A stretch of 64,000 nt of DNA, taken from assembly GCA_038046785.1 (NCBI GenBank), contig JBBSVM010000006.1, positions 101,875 through 165,874 of the forward strand. The letters run 5' to 3'. The notes beneath the pieces were generated by a model. The model saw only the letters and a program-made list of their open reading frames with translations. It was not told where the DNA came from and searched no databases. The stretch is from Thermoplasmatota archaeon. GTDB lineage: Archaea > Thermoplasmatota > E2 > JACPAO01 > JAHFTW01. The position numbers and the translations under genes are program-made. Positions 235-51,877 of this stretch are shown here, piece after piece; position 1 is the first letter of the stretch; each line of letters begins with the position of its first letter.

Positions 235-950
235 GCGCGGCGCACCTCGAGGAGTCGGCGGCGCACGATGATGAACAGGATGGCGCCGAGGACCAGGAAC
301 GCTTGGAGGTCTTGCGGGATGAAGCGGTAGACGTCACCGCCAATTCCAGAACCGAGTTGGATGCCAGTGTAGAGGCTGAGGACGACGAAGGGGATGACGT
401 TCGTGCTCGATTCGACTTGGGTCTCCAGGCGGGCGGCGATGTTGGGATGGAAGATTTGCGCGGTGTGGCCGACGTTCTGGTTCTCGGCAAGCGCTCGCAC
501 CAGCACCATCGTGTCCACCGTGCTCACTCCGGCGCTGAGCAGTTCGGTCTGGAGTTTCTGGGCGCCGGGAAGGTTGGGACCGGTGCCGCCGCCAGGTTTC
601 GTAGTGGTGGCGAGGGCGGTGGCTTTGTTGAGGAAGGTGCCCCATCCTTCCAGGACCGCTTGGAGGGGGAGTTCTGCGTAGGCGGCGCCGACGCGGGCGA
701 AGTAGCGTAGCGTGATGGGGGACTGGCCGACCGCTTCGCGGGCGTTGGCCCAGCGCCTCGCCATGCGTCGTGGCAAGGGGGCAAGGTCGAGGAGGGCGGT
801 GAAGTCGCGCAGGGTCGTGGGAGACCACTGTCCGTTGTCTTTGACGTAGTTGGGGTGTCCGTCGAGGTCGAAATTGTAGTAGCCGTCGGCGTGCCGGATG
901 GGCACGACGATGACGGCGTTGCCGCGTTGGACGAAAGCGTAGTCGTTCAT
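231..950 (-). CDS. hypothetical protein, 239 aa, C-terminal TM anchor followed by RRR
   Basis: ORF track. C-terminus LVLGAILFIIVRRRLLEVRRA is a hydrophobic helix plus basic tail. It is coupled 3 nt downstream of the previous gene. Confidence 0.55.
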   Translation of the reverse strand: MNDYAFVQRGNAVIVVPIRHADGYYNFDLDGHPNYVKDNGQWSPTTLRDFTALLDLAPLPRRMARRWANAREAVGQSPITLRYFARVGAAYAELPLQAVLEGWGTFLNKATALATTTKPGGGTGPNLPGAQKLQTELLSAGVSTVDTMVLVRALAENQNVGHTAQIFHPNIAARLETQVESSTNVIPFVVLSLYTGIQLGSGIGGDVYRFIPQDLQAFLVLGAILFIIVRRRLLEVRRA

Positions 951-953
951 GGT

Positions 954-1655
954 TCACCAGGGTTTGTTCTTGGATCGGGGTCGTTGTCCGATGAGGTAGG
1001 CGAGAAGTGCGCCGCCGCCAACGAGGCCGTAGGTGACAAGTTTCTGTTGTTGCGTGGCGGGGGGCGTGGCTGAAGTTGAATTGGCGGCCGGTTGCGGCTC
1101 CTCGTGGAAGGCCGCGACCTGATTAGGCGCCTGAAGAAGGACATCTCGCAGGAGTGTGCTTCCGTCCTGGCCACCTTGACTTGCGACGACCTCTCCGAAT
1201 CGTCCCTCGCAGGCGTCTGCCTCGCAGCGCACGGTGAAGCGGCAGGTCTGGATGTAGGGGATGGTGGTGTTGGCGTCGCGGACGCCGCAGACGACGGGGG
1301 CGGGGAGGGTGGCCTCGAAGCAGGAGGGCGGAAGGCAGGTCGGAATTGAGTTGTCTGCCTCGCGCATGGTGATTCCGAGTTGGGTGAACGTGCTCGCTGC
1401 AAAGGCACTCCCGTTGCCGAGTGCGGGGTCGACTTCGCCGAGACCGCCTGCGGTAACGCTCGCATTGTCGGCTTGGCCGGCAACGTCGCCCAAGGCGCCA
1501 CGAGCAAGCAGGGTGACGTTCATCTGGATGGGCAGGTCAATCTCGAGGACGTATCCGGGTCCAATCGGAAGAGTGGCGGGAGGAAATTCGGGCGGTGCCT
1601 GCGCCGTGGCTGCGGCCAACAAGAACAGAGCTGTGATGGGGACGATGCGGTTCAT
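954..1655 (-). CDS. secreted, C-terminally membrane-anchored protein, 234 aa
   Basis: Internal Met150 of ORF 954..2102. Signal peptide MNRIVPITALFLLAAATAQA and C-terminal TM LVGGGALLAYLIGQRPRSK. Its ATG overlaps the stop of the 1209-aa gene (ATGA). Confidence 0.6.
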   Translation of the reverse strand: MNRIVPITALFLLAAATAQAPPEFPPATLPIGPGYVLEIDLPIQMNVTLLARGALGDVAGQADNASVTAGGLGEVDPALGNGSAFAASTFTQLGITMREADNSIPTCLPPSCFEATLPAPVVCGVRDANTTIPYIQTCRFTVRCEADACEGRFGEVVASQGGQDGSTLLRDVLLQAPNQVAAFHEEPQPAANSTSATPPATQQQKLVTYGLVGGGALLAYLIGQRPRSKNKPW

Positions 1656-4600
1656 CGTCGCACCCTCCCAGTCGTGTAGCCGCCTGCGACGATGGCGGCG
1701 ATGAGAAGCCACCAGGGCCAGTTCTGCTTGTTCTCCTCGAACCATTTCCCAGCATCGAAACTCGTGATGCTGGAATTGGTGGAGTTGGTGGCGGGTGGTG
1801 CGCTCGTTGGCCTTTGGACGAGGGTGACGTTGGGCTGAGACGTCCGTAGGAGATTTTGCCAGGGGTCGTTGTCGTCGAGGTCGCCCACGGCGCCAAGCGC
1901 TGTGTCGGCGCGGCGTTGGCAGCCAGTCGTGACGTTCTCTACGAGGGTGCCAACTGTTGTGGCATAGCAGCGGTAGTTGTGGAGGCAGGGTTTGACGACG
2001 GGGATGCCGTCGTGGTCGCGGTCCTCGATGGTGCAGACGGCGGGGGCGATGAGGTCGAGGTAGCCGACACACGATGTCTGGTTCTGAGCCTGTTGGGCGC
2101 AAGTTTGCGCTTGCTCAGTGACGTTGTTGGCTTGCGGCGTCTCGTTGCTGGGGATTGCCTGGGTAGTTTGAAGGGCGAGAGGGACGGGCGGGGATGGTTT
2201 CTTGCCGATGCGGTAGAAGTCGGCGTCTTTGCTGGTGGCTGCGTTCTGATTGTAGGATGCGTCGGCCGTCTGGAGAGACATCCAACTTTGATTAGCAACA
2301 TCATAGACGCTTGCGCCGGTAGCGTAGCGTGCGTAGACGTAGTCGAGCTGAGGCGTGGTTCGGACGACGTAGGTTTGGATGCCGCACCAAGGCAATGAGA
2401 TCGTCTTGGTGGCGGCTCCATCGCGGATGGTCAGAGTACAGGCTGCGTTGCGAGCTTGGATGTGATGCTGTGGGTCCACGATGAAGTAGGGACCGAGGGT
2501 GGAGTCGAGTGTCGGAGCAGCGGCGATTGTGTCGTTCGCGGCCACAAGGGCGTGGAGACCGCTTGCGAGCTGCACGTACGCATTGTGATTGTAGTCGACC
2601 TCCAAGGCCAGGGTTGGACGAGAATCGAGGAAGGGCACGCAGGTGGTGACGTGGCAGCGTTGGATGGCCTGGGCGCGTCTTGTGGGCTGTTGGTCCAGCA
2701 AGACTTCCTCGGGTGTGCTTGGGCGCGTGATGTCGCTTCTGACGTAGATGTGGTCGCCGTCGACCCAGGCAAGCCCTGTTGGGGCTTGGATGCCGGTGGC
2801 GTATGTGCGAATGGCGCCATCTTGGTTGCGGGTTTTGACTTCGCCTTGATTGGAGAGGTAGGCATACTGGCCTTCGAGGCCCTGGTTGACGAAGGTGGCG
2901 GTTTCGTGGTTGACGTTGCTTGTGCGCGCGCCGGCAAGGTTGGCGGTGGATGAGGTCATGACCTCGTAGGTGGGTTCGTCGAGGAAGCGAATGTCCTGAA
3001 AGCCGGAACTGAAGTCAGCTGCCTCCCAGATGCTTCCGTCGAACGTGTAGGCGCGGTTGTTGCGGTACTCGACGGCCACGAACGGGACCTGGATGACCTT
3101 GAACGCAACTTTGCGCTGTGACGTCAGGCCATTGGTGTACGTGGCCTTGTAGACCACCTCATTGACCCGCGGCAACGTGTCCGCTTGAACTTCGCATCGC
3201 AAGGTCGTGGTCGAGCTGGAGCATGCCTGGATTCCGTTGATGCTGGCGTTGAGGCTCCGAAGGGCCAGGTTGGGATGAAGAATGGAGGCATCCAGGGGGA
3301 CGATGGAGTCTTTCAGGAAAGCTTCCATCGGATTGGGTGAACGTAGGGTCCACGTCGGCGCGACATCGGCGATGATGTTTTGCACGACGGACGTTGGCCT
3401 CGGTAAGTGCCCGCGTGTCGTCCACGCCTCCTGTGAGTGTTTTCGTTCGTAGACTGCGTTGTCGATGCCGACCAAGAACTGCCCCTGGACATCGTCCGTG
3501 CAGGAGTGGATCGTCAGCTCGTTGGGCATCCTTGGGATGATTGTGAGGGTGCCGTCGCGGATTCGGATGGTGCTGTCGCGAAGGCCAATGTCGACGCCTT
3601 TTGGTCCAATTTCAAAGCATGGCCCATACAGGGTCGGGATGCTTGCTCGTGCGTCGAGTTGAAGGGTCGGCCACGGTCCTACGCGGGTTAGCGTGCCGTT
3701 GTGCTCAATCCGGTACAGTCCGAGCAGGCCGTTGTTGTCGGCGGGAGCGTATGCGGAGTCCGAAGCGTAATCTACGTAGACTCCGGCGAGGGCTTTTCCA
3801 AGCCCGGGTCCTTCCCGGATGGCTCCGAAATCCCAGATGGATGAGCTGCCTTGCCTGCACACCAATGCGTGCGTGCCCCAGAACTTGGTGGGTGAGAACT
3901 CGGTTGCATTGGACCACGTGGTTGCGGGACAAAGTGATCGGAAGGGGTTCGTGTGGACGAATGGCTGGCGTTCACCTTCGAGGTTGACGACTTGGTCTTG
4001 GTGGGATGCCTGTCCGCGAAACACGTACCGGGTGGGGTCCATCCAGTAGTAGCCGGTGGCGGTGCTTGGGTGGGGGATCCATTCGAACCCGGTCCAGAAT
4101 CCCTTGGCGGCAATGGCTTGTTTCCCATTCGTTTTGATGGAATCGTTGGGAAGGTCTTCGTGGTAGTTGGGGCTTCGGATGCGGGAGTCCTGCTGGACGT
4201 ACCCGCCGATTCCCGAGCGGGTTGCATACGTGGTCAAGGTTGTGGGGGTGGGTCCCGGTGAAAGTTTGAGGTCGCCGGCTGCGAGGCCGAGGAATACGGC
4301 GTCGCTTGAGAGCGGCGTGACGATTCCGGCGGGCGTGATTCGGAAGAAGATTCCGTTGAGTTCGGGGGTTCCGCCGAGGAAGCTCAGCACGAGGCCGTCT
4401 TGATCCTGGAGGGCGCCGGCGAAGATGGGGTGCGTCGCGGGTGCTGTGATTGTTGCGAGGCGCTCTGATGCGCTCCAGATTTCGAGGTTGCCGGGCGTGC
4501 TTGTTGGGGCGTAGAGGAAAGAACGAGTTAGGGGAAACAAGCCAAAGGGCTCGACAGGTGGGTACGTCGTCGTTGTGAGGGTTTCAATGTCGAGGACGCC

Positions 4601-5281
4601 CCTTCCTGTTTGATGGTGGTAGAGTGCGACGTGTCGTCCTGCATGCGGTCCCGTGAGGGGGAAACTCTGCTGGAAACCGCCGTTGATGTTGCCGCTCAAG
4701 CTTGTTGCGCGAAGCTGGCCCTCGCCCATGAGGAACATTGTGCGCGCGGGTGCAGTACCTTGGAGAAGCGCATGGCCATCCCCGACGTACCAGGGGGCAA
4801 AATTGCGCGTTGCCGTCTGGAACAAGGTGCTGTTGGTCTTGTTCCAGATGCATGCCGCGTATTCGGGGCTCGGGATATTGTCGACGCTTCCTCCGACGTA
4901 GATGTAGTCACGGTCTTCAACGATTCCAGGCAAGTTCTGGAAACTCCATTTCTTGAATGCGGGGAAATCAGAGTAGCATGTGCGGGTCCTTGCCAAGCCG
5001 TTCTCAATTGTGTAAATGTGGAGATTTCTTCCGTCGGCAAAATGGGCCTGCACCTGGACTTCACTGGTCGCGTTGAGTGTAGCGGAGCCTACACCTTGTC
5101 CAAGCAGCGGGACGCCGAGGTATGGGGCGTGGCCGGCAACCTCCCCTTGCGCCTCGCTTTGGCGGTCTAGGAATTGAAGGTAATCCGGGGCAGGCTCTAC
5201 GATAGCGTAATTGGGCGCTGTTGACAGTCCGCCAGCGATTGGCAGGAGAAGGATTGCAAGGGCAAGATAGATTCGTGGCAT
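1652..5281 (-). CDS. giant secreted cell-surface protein, 1209 aa, C-terminal TM anchor
   Basis: ORF track. N-terminal signal peptide MPRIYLALAILLLPIAGG and C-terminal WWLLIAAIVAGGYTTGRVRR. The long Gly/Thr-rich extracellular region has no recognisable catalytic motif. Confidence 0.7.
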   Translation of the reverse strand: MPRIYLALAILLLPIAGGLSTAPNYAIVEPAPDYLQFLDRQSEAQGEVAGHAPYLGVPLLGQGVGSATLNATSEVQVQAHFADGRNLHIYTIENGLARTRTCYSDFPAFKKWSFQNLPGIVEDRDYIYVGGSVDNIPSPEYAACIWNKTNSTLFQTATRNFAPWYVGDGHALLQGTAPARTMFLMGEGQLRATSLSGNINGGFQQSFPLTGPHAGRHVALYHHQTGRGVLDIETLTTTTYPPVEPFGLFPLTRSFLYAPTSTPGNLEIWSASERLATITAPATHPIFAGALQDQDGLVLSFLGGTPELNGIFFRITPAGIVTPLSSDAVFLGLAAGDLKLSPGPTPTTLTTYATRSGIGGYVQQDSRIRSPNYHEDLPNDSIKTNGKQAIAAKGFWTGFEWIPHPSTATGYYWMDPTRYVFRGQASHQDQVVNLEGERQPFVHTNPFRSLCPATTWSNATEFSPTKFWGTHALVCRQGSSSIWDFGAIREGPGLGKALAGVYVDYASDSAYAPADNNGLLGLYRIEHNGTLTRVGPWPTLQLDARASIPTLYGPCFEIGPKGVDIGLRDSTIRIRDGTLTIIPRMPNELTIHSCTDDVQGQFLVGIDNAVYERKHSQEAWTTRGHLPRPTSVVQNIIADVAPTWTLRSPNPMEAFLKDSIVPLDASILHPNLALRSLNASINGIQACSSSTTTLRCEVQADTLPRVNEVVYKATYTNGLTSQRKVAFKVIQVPFVAVEYRNNRAYTFDGSIWEAADFSSGFQDIRFLDEPTYEVMTSSTANLAGARTSNVNHETATFVNQGLEGQYAYLSNQGEVKTRNQDGAIRTYATGIQAPTGLAWVDGDHIYVRSDITRPSTPEEVLLDQQPTRRAQAIQRCHVTTCVPFLDSRPTLALEVDYNHNAYVQLASGLHALVAANDTIAAAPTLDSTLGPYFIVDPQHHIQARNAACTLTIRDGAATKTISLPWCGIQTYVVRTTPQLDYVYARYATGASVYDVANQSWMSLQTADASYNQNAATSKDADFYRIGKKPSPPVPLALQTTQAIPSNETPQANNVTEQAQTCAQQAQNQTSCVGYLDLIAPAVCTIEDRDHDGIPVVKPCLHNYRCYATTVGTLVENVTTGCQRRADTALGAVGDLDDNDPWQNLLRTSQPNVTLVQRPTSAPPATNSTNSSITSFDAGKWFEENKQNWPWWLLIAAIVAGGYTTGRVRR

Positions 5282-5380
5282 TGACGCTCCTTTGTTGAGG
5301 TTGGAGTTGGTTGGCCTCCGCAGCGTTGCCGCTACGGGTGGTCGTAAGGGTTGGAAGAGGGGTGGAGGGGTTGAGGGGGT

Positions 5381-5590
5381 TCAGCGGCGTGGTTTGCCAA
5401 CACCGCGCGCGTAGGTCCACCATGCGGCCCAGGTTGCGCTGCCGGCGCCGAAACTGGCGAGCAGGAGCACGACGAGGGGGAGGAACAGGTTCCGCATCGC
5501 CATGCCTGCCGCGAGCGCGACGAGGAGGGCGAGGACGAAGCCGTTGAGCTGCTTGCGCGGCTCGATGCGGACGTCGAGGTTGCGGGCCAT
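5381..5590 (-). CDS. small two-TM membrane protein, 69 aa
   Basis: Internal Met of ORF 5381..5848, MARNLDV... with two hydrophobic helices. It sits 4 nt downstream of the previous gene. Confidence 0.4.
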   Translation of the reverse strand: MARNLDVRIEPRKQLNGFVLALLVALAAGMAMRNLFLPLVVLLLASFGAGSATWAAWWTYARGVGKPRR

Positions 5591-5594
5591 GCTC

Positions 5595-6110
5595 TCACAA
5601 GTTGATGGTGGTGGTTCCGAGTTCGGCGTCGATGATGCGGATCGCATCACCCGCGTCGTGGGCGAGGTAGTCCACTTGGACGAGTCCTGCTTGACCGCGC
5701 TGCAGCTCCTTCGTGAAGGCGACGAGGCCGTCGGGCAGGATGACTTGCAGTTTGACGCCGGTGACGCCGTAGCTGGTGAAGCTTGCCTGGTAGCCGGTGG
5801 CTTGCGGGTTGACGAAGCTGGGGCCGATGTGGGTGTAGGCGTCGCCATCGAAGCTGAGGAAGGCGCGCTTGTAGCTGCCCGTCGGAGCTTGCGTTCGTGT
5901 CAGGTCGGTGACGCAGCCGACGGGGTCTTTCTGGGCGCGTTTGAGGAGCCCGTCGAGGAATCCGGTCGAGCAGGGCACCTCGTCGGGCTGCCCGTTGGGG
6001 GGAGTCGCGGTGTCGTCGTCCTTGTCGGTGGCTTTGACGCCGGCGTAGGTGGCTCCGCCCGCGCCGAGGATGGCGAGGGCGACGAGGAGCGCGGTGGCTT
6101 TGCTGTCCAT
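5595..6110 (-). CDS. secreted protein, 171 aa
   Basis: Internal Met96 of ORF 5595..6395. Signal peptide MDSKATALLVALAILGAGGATYA. Its ATG overlaps the stop of the upstream lipoprotein gene. Confidence 0.55.
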   Translation of the reverse strand: MDSKATALLVALAILGAGGATYAGVKATDKDDDTATPPNGQPDEVPCSTGFLDGLLKRAQKDPVGCVTDLTRTQAPTGSYKRAFLSFDGDAYTHIGPSFVNPQATGYQASFTSYGVTGVKLQVILPDGLVAFTKELQRGQAGLVQVDYLAHDAGDAIRIIDAELGTTTINL

Positions 6111-6658
6111 CAGAACCACCCTTGCTTGGTGAGCTTGAATTCGCTGGTGCTGTGGCCGGGGTCGGGTTTGGGGCTGTAGGGCAGCCACCACGGGTTGTTG
6201 TCGTTCTGGTTCTCGAATTGGAAGTCGAGGAGGTAGGCGCCGAAGCCGCTCGCGGTGCTCCACTTGAAGGTCGCCTTGAACGTGCTCGTCTCGTCCTTCT
6301 CGACGCCCACGTTGATGCTCATGGGAGCCGAGTTGCCGTGGTTGCCGGGGTAGTACACGGTGGTGGTGATGGTGCCACGTCGGTTCCAGAACCAACTCGT
6401 TGCTTGGTCGGGATCCTCATACTTGGCCTCGCTCTCGTCGAGTTTGCCATCCTCCAACTTGCCGGAGTCACAATCGACGAGGCTGGCGTGGAAGCCCTCC
6501 GTGCCGTCCAGCTTGAAGTTGCAGATGACGGTGAGGTGCTTCGCCTTGAGCTGCTCGACGGTAAGGCCGGTCTCAGCACCTTTGGGTTTGACGCTGGGTC
6601 CGGCGCAGCCTGCGAAGAGCAGGGTGGCCACGAGGGCGATGGCGAGGAGGGGTTTCAT
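6110..6658 (-). CDS. lipoprotein, 182 aa
   Basis: ORF track. MKPLLAIALVATLLFAGCAG is a lipobox-like signal. It overlaps its neighbours at both ends. Confidence 0.6.
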   Translation of the reverse strand: MKPLLAIALVATLLFAGCAGPSVKPKGAETGLTVEQLKAKHLTVICNFKLDGTEGFHASLVDCDSGKLEDGKLDESEAKYEDPDQATSWFWNRRGTITTTVYYPGNHGNSAPMSINVGVEKDETSTFKATFKWSTASGFGAYLLDFQFENQNDNNPWWLPYSPKPDPGHSTSEFKLTKQGWF

Positions 6659-46780: not shown

Positions 46781-48430
46781 TTAGCCTCGGACGTGGAGGG
46801 TGAAGGGCAGCTCGTCGAGGAAGACGTCGCCGGTCTGGAAGGAGAGCGTGACATCGTAGGCTCCCGAGCGGACGAGCAGGAGATTGTGGACCATCCAGGC
46901 GCCGGCACCGTTGGGGATGGCGTCGAACGAGGAGGCGCCCAGGCTGGGGTCGGCTTGGGAGACGAGGGTGAGGCGTAGGCAGGAGTCGCGGCCACACGTC
47001 GCGGTGCCTTCGTTGGCACCCGTGTCAATGCGGGTGACGGTGATGGAGGGGTGCGAGGGTTGCCCTGCCAAGGGGGCAGGGTCGAAGACGATGCGCGCCA
47101 TGTAGGTGTCGCCGTGCGCCATGATTTCGATGGCTTCTGGAGCGGTGGCCATGACGGGTGGGGCAATGGCGGTCAGGATGCCGGCCAATGCGAGGACTGC
47201 GGCTCCCACAACGGCCTCCATGGCGATGGTGCGGCGAAACGCCGTGGCTCGGGCCGGCTCGTCCTGAGACGTGCGGGCGAGGCGGCGCAGGTGGACGAAA
47301 CGGTTGATGGCGGCCAAGCCGACCATGGCAGCGGCGGCGGCGACCTTGAAACCGAGGACGGTTCCATAGCGGGAGTCGAAGAGGCTGAAGGGGTCGGCGA
47401 CGAGGTCGGGTCCCAGGATGAGGAGGGTCGAGAGTGTGCCGGTGAGGGCGACGATGAGGACCGCCCAGAGCGCCACCTTCGAGAAGGCGAAGGCGCGCTC
47501 CAGGATGGTGCGAGCCGTGAAGGTGCGGTGGCGGGTGAGGTCGACGAGGAGGATGAAGAGGCCACCGACCCAGGCGGCACCGGCGAGGTAGTGGATGGCG
47601 TCGATGGAGATGGCCAAGATGCCGCTGCCGCTGCTGTGCGCAAAGCGGGCACTGGCGAGTGCCGCAACGGCGGCAAGCAAGAGGGGGAGAGCGGGACGCA
47701 GACGGCCATGCCGCAGAGCGTACATCCCAAGCAGGAGGAGAGCGGCACCTGCGAGGATGCGAATTGCCAGGTTGAGGCCGAGGGTGGTGCCGAGGAAGGA
47801 GGGGAGTGAGAGGTTGGCGGAGCTGCTGGTGTCGAGGAGTAAGCCGATAGCGCCGAGGCCAACCAGTGCACCCGCGATGGCGGTGAGTCCGGAGGACCAT
47901 GTCGCGTCGAGGCTCTGGCCGCGCGGGAGCATTAGGCGGTAGAGACTGACGCCGACAGCGAGGGCGAGGCCGGCGTAGGCGATGACGCGCCACCCCATCG
48001 AGGCGGGCGACTCGTCGGCGGTTTGCATGGACGAAGCAGGGGGTGTCGCGTCTCCGATGGCGAAACCGAAGGATCCCGTGGTGACGTGGCCGTCTGCGCC
48101 GGAGAGGGCGCGCCAGGTCACCAAGTAGGCGCCGGGGCCGAGCGGTTCGAGGGAGACGCGCATCGTGCGGTCGTCGCTTGGGTCGAAGGTCGTGTCGTCG
48201 CGGTCCACGCGGCGTCCGGAGGAGTCGGTGACGGTGAGGCGGGATGCTGCGTGGTCAGGCGTCTCCGTCAACGTAACCTGGACGGTGGTTGGCGCGGCCG
48301 AGAGGTGTTCGCCTTCGGAGGGAACGCTGGAGGCGTAGACAGCGTGCGCTGCCACAGTGGGAACCGTGAGCAGGAGGGCCAGGATTCCTCCCAGCAACCA
48401 AAGGTTCCGGAGACTGGAATTGGCCCGCAC
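46781..48430 (-). CDS. copCD: CopC-CopD fusion copper resistance protein with extra C-terminal domain, 549 aa
   Basis: ORF track. Signal peptide then HAVYASSVPSEGEHL (CopC His start). Polytopic CopD-like membrane domain. C-terminal soluble domain. Confidence 0.85.
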   Translation of the reverse strand: MRANSSLRNLWLLGGILALLLTVPTVAAHAVYASSVPSEGEHLSAAPTTVQVTLTETPDHAASRLTVTDSSGRRVDRDDTTFDPSDDRTMRVSLEPLGPGAYLVTWRALSGADGHVTTGSFGFAIGDATPPASSMQTADESPASMGWRVIAYAGLALAVGVSLYRLMLPRGQSLDATWSSGLTAIAGALVGLGAIGLLLDTSSSANLSLPSFLGTTLGLNLAIRILAGAALLLLGMYALRHGRLRPALPLLLAAVAALASARFAHSSGSGILAISIDAIHYLAGAAWVGGLFILLVDLTRHRTFTARTILERAFAFSKVALWAVLIVALTGTLSTLLILGPDLVADPFSLFDSRYGTVLGFKVAAAAAMVGLAAINRFVHLRRLARTSQDEPARATAFRRTIAMEAVVGAAVLALAGILTAIAPPVMATAPEAIEIMAHGDTYMARIVFDPAPLAGQPSHPSITVTRIDTGANEGTATCGRDSCLRLTLVSQADPSLGASSFDAIPNGAGAWMVHNLLLVRSGAYDVTLSFQTGDVFLDELPFTLHVRG

Positions 48431-48558
48431 GGCGCTCAGACGACGGAGGTGCCCGATTTCATGGCGCTGCTAAGTCCGATGCTGGTTTTTCATAAGGGTG
48501 GGTGCGGGAAGGCGTGCGCACCCGAGGCAGAGACGGGAGCCACGCAAGGGGGCAGCCG

Positions 48559-49518
48559 TCACTCGATGACTTCGGCGAAGTCCGCTTCAACTTTGTCCTG
48601 GAAAGCTTTCTTCGCGAACGTGAGGTTGCCTTTTACTGCCGGCTGCGAAAAGGAAAGGTCAGTGCGGACACCAACGTTGACGTTGGTCGGGATAAGCGTG
48701 GTTTCACGACGGGGTGTGATGTTGGTGACTTGGTAGGGTTGCGCTACGTTGACGAAGTCTCGGAACAGTTCGCCTGCGACCAGCTTGTCCATGATTTCGA
48801 GCACTTGGTTGATGGTGGTATGCCCAGCGACAGTTTCGGCAGAGCGGAGTTGGGCGCGAAGGCGCTGAAGTTCGCGTTGGCGCCCTGTCAGCGCCTGTTG
48901 GAGCTCCTGTCGGCGCTTCATGACATTCTTGACTTTGTCCGGGATGGACGCGGAGAAGGAACGTTCCACGCCGACACCTACGGAGACGTCGACTTTGTCG
49001 ATGTTGAGGTCAGAGTAGATGGTCTCCAGCATTCCCGCATCTTTGATGGAGGAGTGCAACCAGTAGAGGTCTTGTTCCCGCTGTCGTTCCGGGTCGACTG
49101 GCGCGCGGACTTCGACAAGTTCGTCGAGGGCCTCTTTCGTGATTTGGCCCTTGAGGATGACGAGGAGGGTTTCGCCGCGTGAGAATTGCTTGGCGCTGGC
49201 CAGCCAGTGGCGTGAGCCTTCCTCCCAGACGACCGGTATGCGGTTTTGCCCGCTGTCGTAGACTTCGTCGATGCGGTATCCGACGATGCCCGGAATCTGT
49301 AGCTTCCGGACGGCGGTGAGGGCGCTGTCGGGAATTTGCACTTTCATCTTCATGACCGAGGTGCGGTCTTGGTAGTCGACTCGAAGACTCTGTACGCTTG
49401 GTCCAAAGTTCTTGAGCTTTTCAATGGCTTGGTTGAATCCGACGGCGACCTCTTTCAGTGCCTTCGTTTCGCCGTACCCGAATGTCATTTCTTTGCCTCC
49501 ATTTTTTCTTTTAGCCAT
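48559..49518 (-). CDS. hypothetical protein, 319 aa, Lys-rich, coiled-coil segment; lower local GC
   Basis: ORF track. KRRQELQQALTGRQRELQRLRAQLRSAE is a coiled coil. No family recognised. It overlaps the upstream gene by 34 nt. Confidence 0.6.
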   Translation of the reverse strand: MAKRKNGGKEMTFGYGETKALKEVAVGFNQAIEKLKNFGPSVQSLRVDYQDRTSVMKMKVQIPDSALTAVRKLQIPGIVGYRIDEVYDSGQNRIPVVWEEGSRHWLASAKQFSRGETLLVILKGQITKEALDELVEVRAPVDPERQREQDLYWLHSSIKDAGMLETIYSDLNIDKVDVSVGVGVERSFSASIPDKVKNVMKRRQELQQALTGRQRELQRLRAQLRSAETVAGHTTINQVLEIMDKLVAGELFRDFVNVAQPYQVTNITPRRETTLIPTNVNVGVRTDLSFSQPAVKGNLTFAKKAFQDKVEADFAEVIE

Positions 49519-50558
49519 ACAATACGGACAGGAATCTCGAATGACTTGCCGTTGGTGCGTTCATCGTTGACGCTGATGTGGTGGTTCAGCACGGGGTAGT
49601 CGTTGCCCATCGAGTCCTGGTAGGTGAGGGCGAAATCCAGGGATTGGAAATGGTGGTCGAGGACAATGCTCGTGTTGCCCTGCTGCATTCGGACGCCCTC
49701 GGCGGGGTTCATGGACATCATGTCGAGGAGGGAGGCGATCCAGATTTGTTCGATTTCCGAGTGGAGCAGCCTTCCCAGTTTTTCTCGGTACTCTTTGTCC
49801 CCGAGCATTTCACGTTGGGCGCGCATGGCGGCCAAGAATTCGGGGTCGAGTTTTTCGCCTGTGTCAAGGGCGTTGAGGATTCGCGACATCGTTTCCACCA
49901 CAAGTTCTTCCCCAACTTTTACGCGCGTTCCCTTTGGGGGCTCGCTGGCGGGCAAAGGCTCGTCGAGGTCGCGACGGGGGGCAAGACGCTTGAGGATGGC
50001 CTCAAAAAGGAGTTCGTTGCGGATTTTACTCTGCCCATTGGATGTAACCTCGACGTGGACGCGAGCGGAGCCGCTGCCCACGAGTTTGACTTTGATCTCA
50101 AGTGGTCCGGCCTTCCCATCCGGGGGGATGCGGAAGTTGTCGGGGGCGTCCACGATTTCGATGGTGGGGCGAATGACTCGAGTTTGCACGTCAACGACGT
50201 GAATCTCTTGTTCGCCGGAGAAGAATGCCGCTTGGATGTTGATGATTTCTTCGCGTGCCACGGGAAGTCGCTTGCAGAGCAAGGTGCCGGAAAGGTAGCC
50301 ATGGATTCCAACGTCCGTGACGCGGAAGGTCGTACCAGTTGTGTGCTCGTCCATCGACGTCAAGCGGGCATTGTGGATTGCCTTGATCTCCACCCCGGTT
50401 GGCAGACGGAATTCGACTGCATTGAGGGCATCAAATGGAGTCCAGAGCAAGTGGAACGGGGCGGCCTCGTTGGGGAGGACCCAATCTGCCAGATATGCCT
50501 CCTTGAAATGGAATCTTGGACCATCAGCCGCCGGTGAAGATTGGGGGGCGGACTGCAT
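49485..50558 (-). CDS. hypothetical protein, about 357 aa (beta-rich N-terminal half, helical C-terminal half)
   Basis: Internal Met72 of ORF 49485..50771. No family recognised. Co-oriented and overlapping with 48559..49518. Confidence 0.55.
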   Translation of the reverse strand: MQSAPQSSPAADGPRFHFKEAYLADWVLPNEAAPFHLLWTPFDALNAVEFRLPTGVEIKAIHNARLTSMDEHTTGTTFRVTDVGIHGYLSGTLLCKRLPVAREEIINIQAAFFSGEQEIHVVDVQTRVIRPTIEIVDAPDNFRIPPDGKAGPLEIKVKLVGSGSARVHVEVTSNGQSKIRNELLFEAILKRLAPRRDLDEPLPASEPPKGTRVKVGEELVVETMSRILNALDTGEKLDPEFLAAMRAQREMLGDKEYREKLGRLLHSEIEQIWIASLLDMMSMNPAEGVRMQQGNTSIVLDHHFQSLDFALTYQDSMGNDYPVLNHHISVNDERTNGKSFEIPVRIVWLKEKMEAKK

Positions 50559-50860
50559 GGCAGAGATGCCAAGCGCCAGAGTCCCATTTGAAGGTGCGTG
50601 GAGCCGGCCTTCGGCCGGGGGCGTGGCGGCGCTGCGGCGCCGCGCACGCTTGCCGACGACGAGAGGAACAGTGCCGCGTTGGGGCTTCCAAGTGGGCGAG
50701 CGGCTGGCCCTTGCGCTGGGGCGAGCCGAACGCCCACTTCGTTCGCGCTGGCGTTCTTCGTCGCTCCACACCGATCCTCATTCGTGTATGTGAGTCCACG
50801 CACAGGCCAATGCGTGTACCACTTTCACTCATCCTCCCCGGTCGCTTATCTTCTGATACG

Positions 50861-50890
50861 CGTTTCGCGCCTTCAGCGCGAAACGCGCTT
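50861..50890. other. perfect 11-bp inverted repeat hairpin (gcgtttcgcgc / cttcag / cgcgaaacgc) in a 540-nt intergenic region
   Basis: Read directly. It lies between the 49485..50558 gene start and the 3' end of the 51098..51325 gene. Confidence 0.6.
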
Positions 50891-51097
50891 CAGTGGATTG
50901 CGACCGGGGGGATAAGAAAAATAGGGAACCCCCCAACCCAGTTCCTGAACCTCCCCCACCCAATAAGAAAAGGTGGGAGCACCAAAGAGAGAATACGGGC
51001 CCTTTGCGCGTTGATTGGGATGCGGTGCGGAGTCCGCCTGTCCCGCGCAGGCGCCGCGACTTTGGACCCATACTTAAGCGCCTCGGGCGAGAGCGCG

Positions 51098-51325
51098 TCA
51101 GAGGATGCGGACGTTCTTGGCGAGCGTCTTGAATCGTTCACCCGATTTCGTGGTGACGGTGATGGAGACCTGCTTGTAGGTCGCTCCGATCTTGAGGTCC
51201 GAGATCGTTCCCGATTTGCCTTTGTGGGTTCCGTCAACGACTTCGCAGGCGGCGCCGTCGCGCAGGCCGGTGGGTGTTGCGGGGGATGACTTTGCCATCT
51301 TGTGGGCACCCGAGATGTCCCGCAA
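51098..51325 (-). CDS. small beta-barrel protein, 66-75 aa (KOW-like, unassigned)
   Basis: ORF track. GAACEVVDGTHKGKSGTISDLKIGATYKQVSITVTTKSGERFKTLAKNVRIL. Alternative Met10 start. Confidence 0.4.
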   Translation of the reverse strand: MRDISGAHKMAKSSPATPTGLRDGAACEVVDGTHKGKSGTISDLKIGATYKQVSITVTTKSGERFKTLAKNVRIL

Positions 51326-51364
51326 AAGAGTTGCCGTGGGGCGTCGTCGTCACGCGTTGTGGGT

Positions 51365-51877
51365 TCAGCGCGCGAGGTCCACGAGAGCAACTGCTTCGAG
51401 GACCAGGTCGAGGCGGCGTTCCGGCGTCGTCGCCGCGAGCTGAAGCGCGGTGATGCCGAAGTCGAGCAGTTTCGATTCGCGGGGGGCCAGCAGGGCGTCG
51501 TCCTCGTCGAGGCCCAGGCTGTGCACGAAATGCTCGACGGCGTCGCTGCCTTTGGGGCCGAGGCCGATGACGATGGCGCCGGACGTCACGTCGGGGAGGC
51601 CCATTTTCTCCAGCGCCGCCGAGATGGAGCGTTCGCCGGCGAGGTAGCGCAGGAACTCCACTTCCGGCCGCTCGGCTTGGGCGCGGCCCTCGGCGGCGGC
51701 GCGGGCGGCAAGGCGGGCGGCGTGGCGCACGTGGTCACTGCCGAGCACTCGGTCCGCGCGCACGACCTGCAGCGGAGCGATGCGGCTGGATTTCTTGGCG
51801 ACGAAGAGGGCGTCCTCCAGCTTGAGCGGGCCGCGCACGGCGGCGAGGGCGACCTGATCTTCGGGGAAGCGCATCAT
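51365..51877 (-). CDS. cgi121: probable KEOPS subunit Cgi121, 170 aa
   Basis: ORF track. HVRHAARLAARAAAEGRAQAERPEVEFLRYLAGERSISAALEKMGL...AIVIG matches the Cgi121 core pattern (recalled from memory). Its ATG overlaps the hel308 stop. Confidence 0.5.
   Translation of the reverse strand: MMRFPEDQVALAAVRGPLKLEDALFVAKKSSRIAPLQVVRADRVLGSDHVRHAARLAARAAAEGRAQAERPEVEFLRYLAGERSISAALEKMGLPDVTSGAIVIGLGPKGSDAVEHFVHSLGLDEDDALLAPRESKLLDFGITALQLAATTPERRLDLVLEAVALVDLAR

Follow-up and report, generated by a model that had tools for sequence, protein, structure and literature searches.

Two overlapping minus-strand genes, here called B and A in the order of transcription, very probably constitute a mobile, self-contained accessory cassette of archaea. 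They lie in a stretch of 64,000 nucleotides (the window) that comes from a metagenome-assembled genome of Candidatus Thermoplasmatota (contig JBBSVM010000006.1), and are annotated at NCBI as hypothetical proteins AABX89_07660 and AABX89_07665. The pair is considered a horizontally moving module because the same two genes recur at unrelated positions in at least six archaeal lineages. Both mobility and self-containment are well supported, since the GC content at third codon positions (GC3) is lower in the pair than in its neighbours in every locus compared, near-identical copies occur in unrelated flanks, and the borders of the unit are sharp. In the window, the pair is arranged as follows:

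49485–50558, minus strand: gene B, 357 amino acids (aa) from the ATG at 50558, the upstream gene of the pair
48559–49488, minus strand: gene A, 309 aa (319 aa from an alternative ATG at 49518), the downstream gene of the pair
49485–49488, minus strand: ATGA overlap of the B stop codon with the A start codon, 4 nt (instead of 34 nt)

The list of open reading frames (ORFs) contains 48559–49518 (minus, 319 aa) and 49485–50771 (minus, 428 aa from the first GTG). The reading frame of B stays open up to this GTG at 50771, the extension being Arg-rich and without conservation; the start of A at 49488 and the length of 357 aa for B are backed by NCBI, Logan, and homolog alignments. The initial annotation, which described two overlapping minus-strand genes of 319 and about 357 aa, is hence retained for B and for the overlap itself, but A shortens to 309 aa and the overlap to 4 nt. 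Because the B stop and the A start overlap as ATGA, translation of the two genes would be expected to be coupled; five independent gene calls show the stop and start codons overlapping by 1–4 nt. That both ORFs are real genes under purifying selection follows from their conservation at the protein level in more than 30 loci and from a ratio of nonsynonymous to synonymous substitution rates (dN/dS) of 0–0.56 for both (moderately diverged copies, unsaturated pairs; the out-of-frame rows, i.e., B of L024/L025 and both genes of L021/L025, were left out).

Loci with the pair were recovered from genomes (three: one Bathyarchaeia, two Thorarchaeota), from metagenomes (25), by exact-protein look-up (three), and from a Haloplanus plasmid (one). 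A homolog of B is located directly upstream of A, on the same strand, in 29 of 29 independent loci with readable upstream DNA, the two genes either overlapping or standing a few nucleotides apart. Across 31 loci, B followed by A is the sole conserved unit, and an all-against-all BLAST of the other ORFs in the recovered loci reveals no neighbour family in more than two loci, in agreement with the initial description of a self-contained module. Pairwise identities of A correlate strongly with those of B (Spearman 0.87 for 231 pairs from 22 loci; 0.83 without close pairs), B diverging faster, with a mean identity of 35% vs. 43% for A. The two genes co-evolve, and their pairing is obligate.

Two candidates for a third conserved component were rejected. 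The genes upstream of the pair in L001 and on the Haloplanus plasmid show no relation to one another or to those of any other locus, and a small ribbon-helix-helix (RHH)-like gene follows A in L010 and L020 only (L010, 2519–2872; L020, 3–158 and 2578–2883; in one locus it precedes B), being absent from all remaining loci. From inspection of its sequence this gene looks RHH-like, and its distribution suggests that two different cassettes can flank one such gene. On the Haloplanus plasmid (NZ_CP147875.1; L033, 9557–10788), B is preceded by two overlapping, co-oriented hypothetical genes of 256 and 154 aa, so that this copy appears as a four-gene operon; the two extra genes have no relatives in other loci. 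In L015, B is split into ORFs 332–895 and 953–1381 with A intact, pointing either to decay of this copy or to a fault in the assembly. An A-family protein of Candidatus Nitrosocosmicus (P0074/P0163, WP_149863791.1), labelled "Zn-ribbon protein" in one source, is extended at its N-terminus by about 198 aa; a fused B was ruled out here, and since the 198-aa region is unrelated to B, the fusion gives no clue to function.

Recent movement is seen in groups of closely related cassettes. Those of L010, L012, and L030 are 97.5% identical and have differing flanks, the divergence setting in 28 nt past the A stop codon. Similarly, the cassettes of L007 and L022 are 98.6% identical in differing flanks and diverge 121 nt upstream of B, and L024 and L025, again with differing flanks, share 95% identity over a stretch that begins about 95 nt ahead of B and stops 34 nt past A. 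The L014 and L019 copies are 86.6% identical from 63–75 nt upstream to 43 nt downstream, and between L023 and L026 cassette identity reaches 94.7%, vs. 79–82% for the syntenic upstream genes. Generally, similarity stops 28–45 nt after A and about 60–120 nt before B. The closest homolog pair of the window cassette (L001; 68% and 55% identity) has no neighbour in common with the window. No transposase or integrase belonging to the unit and no terminal repeats were found, and terminal repeats or att sites sought at the borders of the window cassette were likewise not present.

A GC-rich palindrome was considered as a feature of cassette borders and ruled out, as it occurs across the intergenic DNA of the AT-rich genomes concerned. 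Such short palindromes, (T)AGCGCGCGC(TA), are mostly intergenic in AT-rich metagenome contigs (e.g., L010 at 2505, L012 at 2570, L020 at 201 and 2577, L025 at 2495, 5442, 6983, and 10296; also L030, L008, L018, and L027), and the similarity of the L010, L012, and L030 cassettes stops exactly within one of them. The palindrome looks genome-wide and may mark gene boundaries or act as a hotspot of recombination.

The pair is also set apart by composition. A scan of the window sequence in 300-nt segments gives a GC content of 0.51–0.60 over approximately 48400–51400 and of 0.64–0.74 on either side. Total GC, GC at second codon positions (GC2), and GC3 are 0.568, 0.365, and 0.703 for A and 0.565, 0.385, and 0.687 for B, whereas the neighbour genes in the window have GC3 of 0.79–0.89 and GC2 mostly of 0.46–0.54. 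The fraction of Lys, Ile, and Asn is 0.15 in A and B vs. 0.06–0.12 in the neighbours, that of Gly, Ala, Arg, and Pro 0.24–0.26 vs. 0.34–0.38, and the window copy of B ends in KEKMEAKK; the lower GC content and the proteins richer in Lys, Ile, and Asn that had been noted by eye, with this same C-terminus as the example, are confirmed by these values. For the 18 loci with at least three neighbour genes, the pair has lower GC3 than the neighbours in all 18 (mean difference −0.086, Wilcoxon p = 7.6e-6) and lower GC2 in 16. Since GC3 is lower in 18 of 18 loci, the low GC content is not merely a reflection of protein composition.

The named hosts are all archaeal and represent six lineages (Thermoplasmatota; Bathyarchaeia; Thorarchaeota; Haloferax volcanii and Haloplanus; Nitrosocosmicus of Nitrososphaeria; Methanophagales), with archaeal TBP and TFB among the neighbours. 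The Haloplanus copy resides on a 221-kb plasmid amid typical haloarchaeal plasmid genes (TBP, TFB, PCNA, AAA ATPase), and the Haloferax volcanii copy on a 620-kb contig, presumably about the size of the pHV4 megaplasmid. The horizontal acquisition that the initial annotation proposed from composition is borne out by the GC3 difference together with the unrelated flanks, the sharp borders, the spread over six lineages, and the plasmid copy.

Searches with the window proteins against Pfam, NCBIfam, PADLOC, and PHROGs gave chance-level matches only, Pfam searches with 108 full-length members of the A family and 24 of the B family matched no family consistently, and comparison of both family profiles with PDB sequences yielded nothing above chance. 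The lack of recognisable motifs stated at the outset thus holds for the families as well as for the window copies. A word-indexed search of 5.8 billion proteins returned only two relatives for each of A and B; an exhaustive profile search for A, in a library of size 1.84 billion, returned 190 representative clusters at E ≤ 1e-3, of which 62 reach E ≤ 1e-30, the relatives being nearly all about 300–340 aa long and aligned end to end. A and B are not paralogs (hhalign probability 0.8%). Patterns derived from A or B identified no relative in 2.9 million viral contigs of IMG/VR, the 50,697 phage records of INPHARED contain no match, and among 72,556 plasmids there is one match.

Both proteins are soluble by sequence (maximum 19-residue hydropathy 0.8, no signal-like N-terminus, and no transmembrane segment evident), with predicted isoelectric points of 5.7 for B and 7.8 for A. 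AlphaFold models were built from alignments of three sequences each, with a mean predicted local distance difference test (pLDDT) of 48 for A and 61 for B. In the B model, residues 13–175 (pLDDT 70–89) form two immunoglobulin (Ig)-like beta-sandwich domains, the middle part is helical and poorly modelled, and the C-terminal beta domain (294–349) is moderately confident. Foldseek matches residues 13–175 to tandem Ig-like modules of adhesins, pilins, cohesin/FnIII, and complement MG domains in PDB (probability ~1.0, E down to 5e-5, TM-score 0.2–0.30, sequence identity ~10%), and to generic Ig-like domains only among viral proteins (BFVD). This part of B is accordingly assigned the Ig-like beta-sandwich fold, which is a statement of fold class only.

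B begins with a near-invariant motif, Y-x-A-P-W-A-L-P-x-E-x-x-P-x-H-L-x-W, which from A-P-W onward is invariant in the 24 members; outside it, N63, R130-P131, G161-x-G163, P285, D315, Y321, and W348 are likewise invariant, and at least 90% of the members keep Y313, N319, D332, and R334. The C-terminal beta domain shows the pattern Y313-x-D315...N319-x-Y321...D332-x-R334...W348. Past the conserved "NP", the B proteins of L005, L006, L007, L010, L012, L017, L019–L021, L024, L025, L027, and L032 end in a short Cys-containing tail (e.g., EGAKC, ECCKVG, EVCR, EGYCD), which the window copy does not have; the Cys could be a site of lipidation, metal binding, or disulfide formation.

A has a helix and a beta-sandwich spanning about 100 aa at its N-terminus, the conserved segment D-x-Y-W-L-H-S-A-I-K-D, a helix about 55 residues long, and a C-terminal region with many beta-strand-like patterns. 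Its model is confident only in the N-terminal sandwich of about 100 residues, which generically matches the beta domains of M1 aminopeptidases. Near-invariant positions among the 108 members are Y142, W143, P183, P267, L278, and G287. Residues 182–237, a 56-residue helix in the model (pLDDT < 50) with weak matches to coiled-coil families (E 0.02–0.1), are a putative coiled coil. Neither A nor B carries a known catalytic signature.

To explain these features, we tentatively favour a minimal mobile archaeal two-gene cassette with a binding-based accessory role in conflict. B and A would be transcribed jointly and translated in a coupled manner, and would probably form one heteromeric complex, to which B may contribute its tandem Ig-like beta-sandwiches and conserved C-terminal beta domain, and A its beta-sandwich, the conserved YW(L)HS segment, and the long helix; the helical parts of both proteins are the likely contact. 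The cassette would take along about 60–120 nt of its own upstream DNA and move without a mobility gene of its own. Its most likely role would be to defend against viruses or plasmids, or to exclude them, through binding and not catalysis, with B as the candidate recognition part, given its faster evolution. Such a conflict function, with B recognising the target, is possible but less secure than the cassette itself; more doubtful still is its specific form, a new, archaea-specific immune or exclusion system in which two non-enzymatic beta-sandwich/coiled-coil proteins, spreading by recombination as a promoter-plus-two-gene cassette, bind a component of the invader.

Compared with known systems, the cassette behaves, in its genome dynamics, like compact defence or toxin–antitoxin cassettes, but it falls outside each class of system for which membership could be assessed. 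Kiwa, Gabija, and similar pairs of the PADLOC and DefenseFinder catalogues are likewise co-directional, overlapping, self-sufficient two-gene units, AT-richer than the host, scattered across lineages at variable positions, and at times located beside restriction–modification genes; unlike them, the cassette matches no PADLOC model and has no nuclease, ATPase, NAD-ase, kinase, or membrane-spanning part. With type II toxin–antitoxin systems it shares the two-gene operon, the stop/start overlap, and the minimal format without mobility genes, but its proteins have 357 and 309 aa, while toxin–antitoxin proteins typically have about 70–150 aa. Moreover, Pfam and NCBIfam detect no helix-turn-helix (HTH), RHH, or toxin domain in A or B, and the L015 locus, with B interrupted and A intact, argues against a strict toxin/antidote relation if its assembly is correct. 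The pair does not qualify as a member of this class.

The best fold matches to the N-terminal half of B are surface adhesins and pilins (antigen I/II C-terminal domains, SpaD, cohesin/FnIII pairs); B, however, is a predicted cytoplasmic protein lacking a signal peptide or anchor, hence the likeness is one of generic fold and not of family. Integrons have been reported in archaea, and integron gene cassettes resemble the pair in being short, sharp-bordered units in unrelated contexts; in L007, a tyrosine recombinase is found upstream. In contrast to integron cassettes, no attC-like 3′ hairpin or motif is shared across the cassette lineages, the recombinase is present in one of about 20 loci (L007), only 28–45 nt past the A stop codon lie within the shared block, and the unit carries its own upstream region, so that the unit does not qualify as an integron cassette. 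Nor does the pair qualify as a virus or provirus gene set, as PHROGs and INPHARED contain no match, patterns derived from A or B retrieve no relative from IMG/VR, and its BFVD matches are generic.

The neighbourhoods of the pair are mixed. L008 has the R and M subunits of a type I restriction–modification system, L012 and L019 have type IIG enzymes, L029 an Mrr-like nuclease, and L010 HerA with a methylase; a KAP NTPase is found near the pair in L001, and the L007 recombinase lies 700 nt upstream. Further neighbours elsewhere include hydrogenase maturation genes, aldehyde:ferredoxin oxidoreductase, ThiS/ThiF, and genes with no assigned function. In most loci, no integrase, transposase, or virus gene is present within four genes. 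Beside the L030 cassette, a 1196-aa protein without a Pfam match and a 538-aa ThiF/E1-like protein are encoded at 947–6461, and this neighbour pair could be another uncharacterised conflict system. Overall, the neighbourhoods are compatible with a defence or conflict role without establishing it; such a role is only suggested. Homologs of the pair are not uniformly situated in core housekeeping contexts; such a uniform setting is what the initial annotation named as speaking against its reading.

In the window, A is followed on its 3′ side by a fused CopC/CopD gene, a regulator of the NikR type, and a P-type ATPase (copper/nickel genes). On the 5′ side of B, beyond a spacer, come a gene of 75 aa, one with a weak match to Cgi121, and one that clearly encodes a Hel308 helicase (E = 1e-141 against solved structures of Hel308/Hjm).

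Several observations weigh against the binding-based conflict explanation or parts of it. The window context is no defence island, because the flanks consist of metal resistance and housekeeping genes. By raw count, restriction-type or HerA genes are found within four genes of the pair in five of about 20 informative loci, and about half of the informative loci have only metabolic or informational neighbours (Hyp, PheRS, AOR, TBP, M24 peptidase). PADLOC-DB 2.0.0 (5027 models) contains no family matching A or B at E ≤ 1. The low GC content comes in part from amino acid composition, as reflected in GC2, and not from synonymous sites only, and no mobility mechanism was identified. Because the structure models are poor (pLDDT 48 and 61, with generic Ig-like fold matches at TM-scores of at most 0.30), the A–B complex and binding in place of catalysis are read from sequence patterns alone; the invariant polar residues E31, H36, N63, R130, D315, and D332/R334 of B could as well form an unrecognised active or binding site. 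The defence role contemplated in the initial annotation is at most suggested: the pair has no catalogued defence relative, the window cassette is flanked by Hel308, Cgi121, and copper/nickel genes, and restriction-type genes occur near about a quarter of the informative loci.

Among the alternatives, a patchily retained cellular structure or scaffold with no part in conflict, its low GC content resulting from a composition rich in Lys, Ile, Asn, and Glu and from low expression, is rather unlikely. The lower GC2 in 16 of 18 loci would fit it, as would purifying selection, the near-invariant residues of A that are structural in type (Y, W, P, G), the absence of an evident catalytic motif, and the many loci, the window included, with housekeeping neighbours only. 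GC3, however, is independent of protein composition and is lower in all 18 loci; copies 95–98.6% identical stand in unrelated flanks with sharp borders; the closest homolog pair shares no neighbour with the window; and the family is rare (190 representative clusters in the library of 1.84 billion), all of which speaks against it.

That the pair is cargo of mobile elements, serving maintenance, addiction, exclusion, or anti-defence, with the chromosomal copies as remnants or passengers, is unlikely as well. The copy among typical plasmid genes in Haloplanus, the Haloferax volcanii contig of presumably megaplasmid size, the tyrosine recombinase 700 nt upstream in L007, the AT-rich synonymous sites in every host, and the recent copies in differing flanks speak for such cargo. 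Conversely, patterns derived from A or B retrieve no relative from the viral contigs of IMG/VR, the phage records and PHROGs contain no match, and the 72,556 plasmids a single one; in the majority of loci, nothing of integrase, transposase, or viral type is encoded within four genes of the pair; and both proteins are far larger than those of classical addiction pairs.

Finally, it is improbable that B is an unrecognised enzyme with A as its partner or regulator in a small accessory metabolic or modification activity, since, although B has invariant polar residues in two regions (E31 and H36; then N63, R130, D315, N319, D332, and R334), conserved aromatic residues typical of ligand- or sugar-binding beta-sandwiches (W26, W39, Y313, Y321, W348), and carbohydrate-binding modules among its fold matches, no enzyme family is matched by sequence or fold, many of the conserved residues fall at predicted turns or domain borders, as is usual for structural residues, and the pair shows no consistent linkage with any metabolic gene.

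Outside the genes, the window cassette is bordered by two spacers, the 5′ one containing a hairpin and a terminator-like site:

48431–48558, no strand: spacer 3′ of A, 128 nt from the A stop codon to the start of the CopC/CopD gene
50559–51097, no strand: spacer 5′ of B, 539 nt between the 75-aa gene and B, GC ~0.60
50840–50905, minus strand: hairpin, −42.5 kcal/mol, z = −8.6, matched by 0 of 200 shuffles
50922–50935, minus strand: terminator-like site, a short stem followed by TTTTTCTTAT, just ahead of the hairpin

The 3′ border of the cassette probably lies within 48431–48558, because near-identical related cassettes lose similarity 28–45 nt past the A stop codon. The 5′ spacer, which presumably holds the cassette promoter, agrees with the 540-nt intergenic region with a hairpin described initially, the fold being strong; it is conserved in no related locus, and the hairpin is not found beside other cassettes. 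For this reason both are taken as local features of the window, the hairpin being possibly an operator or an RNA element. Its core is formed by a 13-bp palindrome, GCGCG-W3-CGCGC, present twice with 5 nt in between, and the palindrome motif has no further occurrence within the window. An Rfam scan of the spacer gave no family above threshold; the sub-threshold matches are of microRNA type only, due to the hairpin.

The terminator-like site, with its T-run, would terminate the upstream 75-aa gene. Just upstream of the hairpin in the sense of transcription, the spacer contains two 21-nt direct repeats (50912–50932 and 50963–50983, 51 nt apart), reading ...CCCTATTTTTCTTAT and ...CCCACCTTTTCTTAT on the minus strand, which could be tandem oligo-T terminators of the same gene. 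The 75-aa ORF itself (51098–51325, minus; GC 0.60) is located at the edge of the low-GC block and has a KOW-like G-x-x-K-G-K-x-G motif; its match to ribosomal protein S4e is at chance level only.

Archaeal immunity and accessory biology are far less charted than their bacterial counterparts, and many archaeal genomes have few known systems beyond CRISPR and restriction–modification (PMC12988326). A and B represent two protein families that, as far as sequence comparison reaches, have no detectable link to anything described; they are new by exclusion, because no described family fits by sequence or, within the limits of the models, by fold, and not by a demonstrated new mechanism. The pair is obligately linked and clearly mobile across six archaeal lineages, and genetically tractable haloarchaea are among its hosts (Haloferax volcanii, Haloplanus), so that a test of function is feasible. 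Should defence or exclusion prove true, the cassette would be a system that lacks any recognisable enzyme or membrane effector; otherwise, it would still be a well-delimited example of a minimal cassette that moves among archaeal genomes without a mobility gene of its own.

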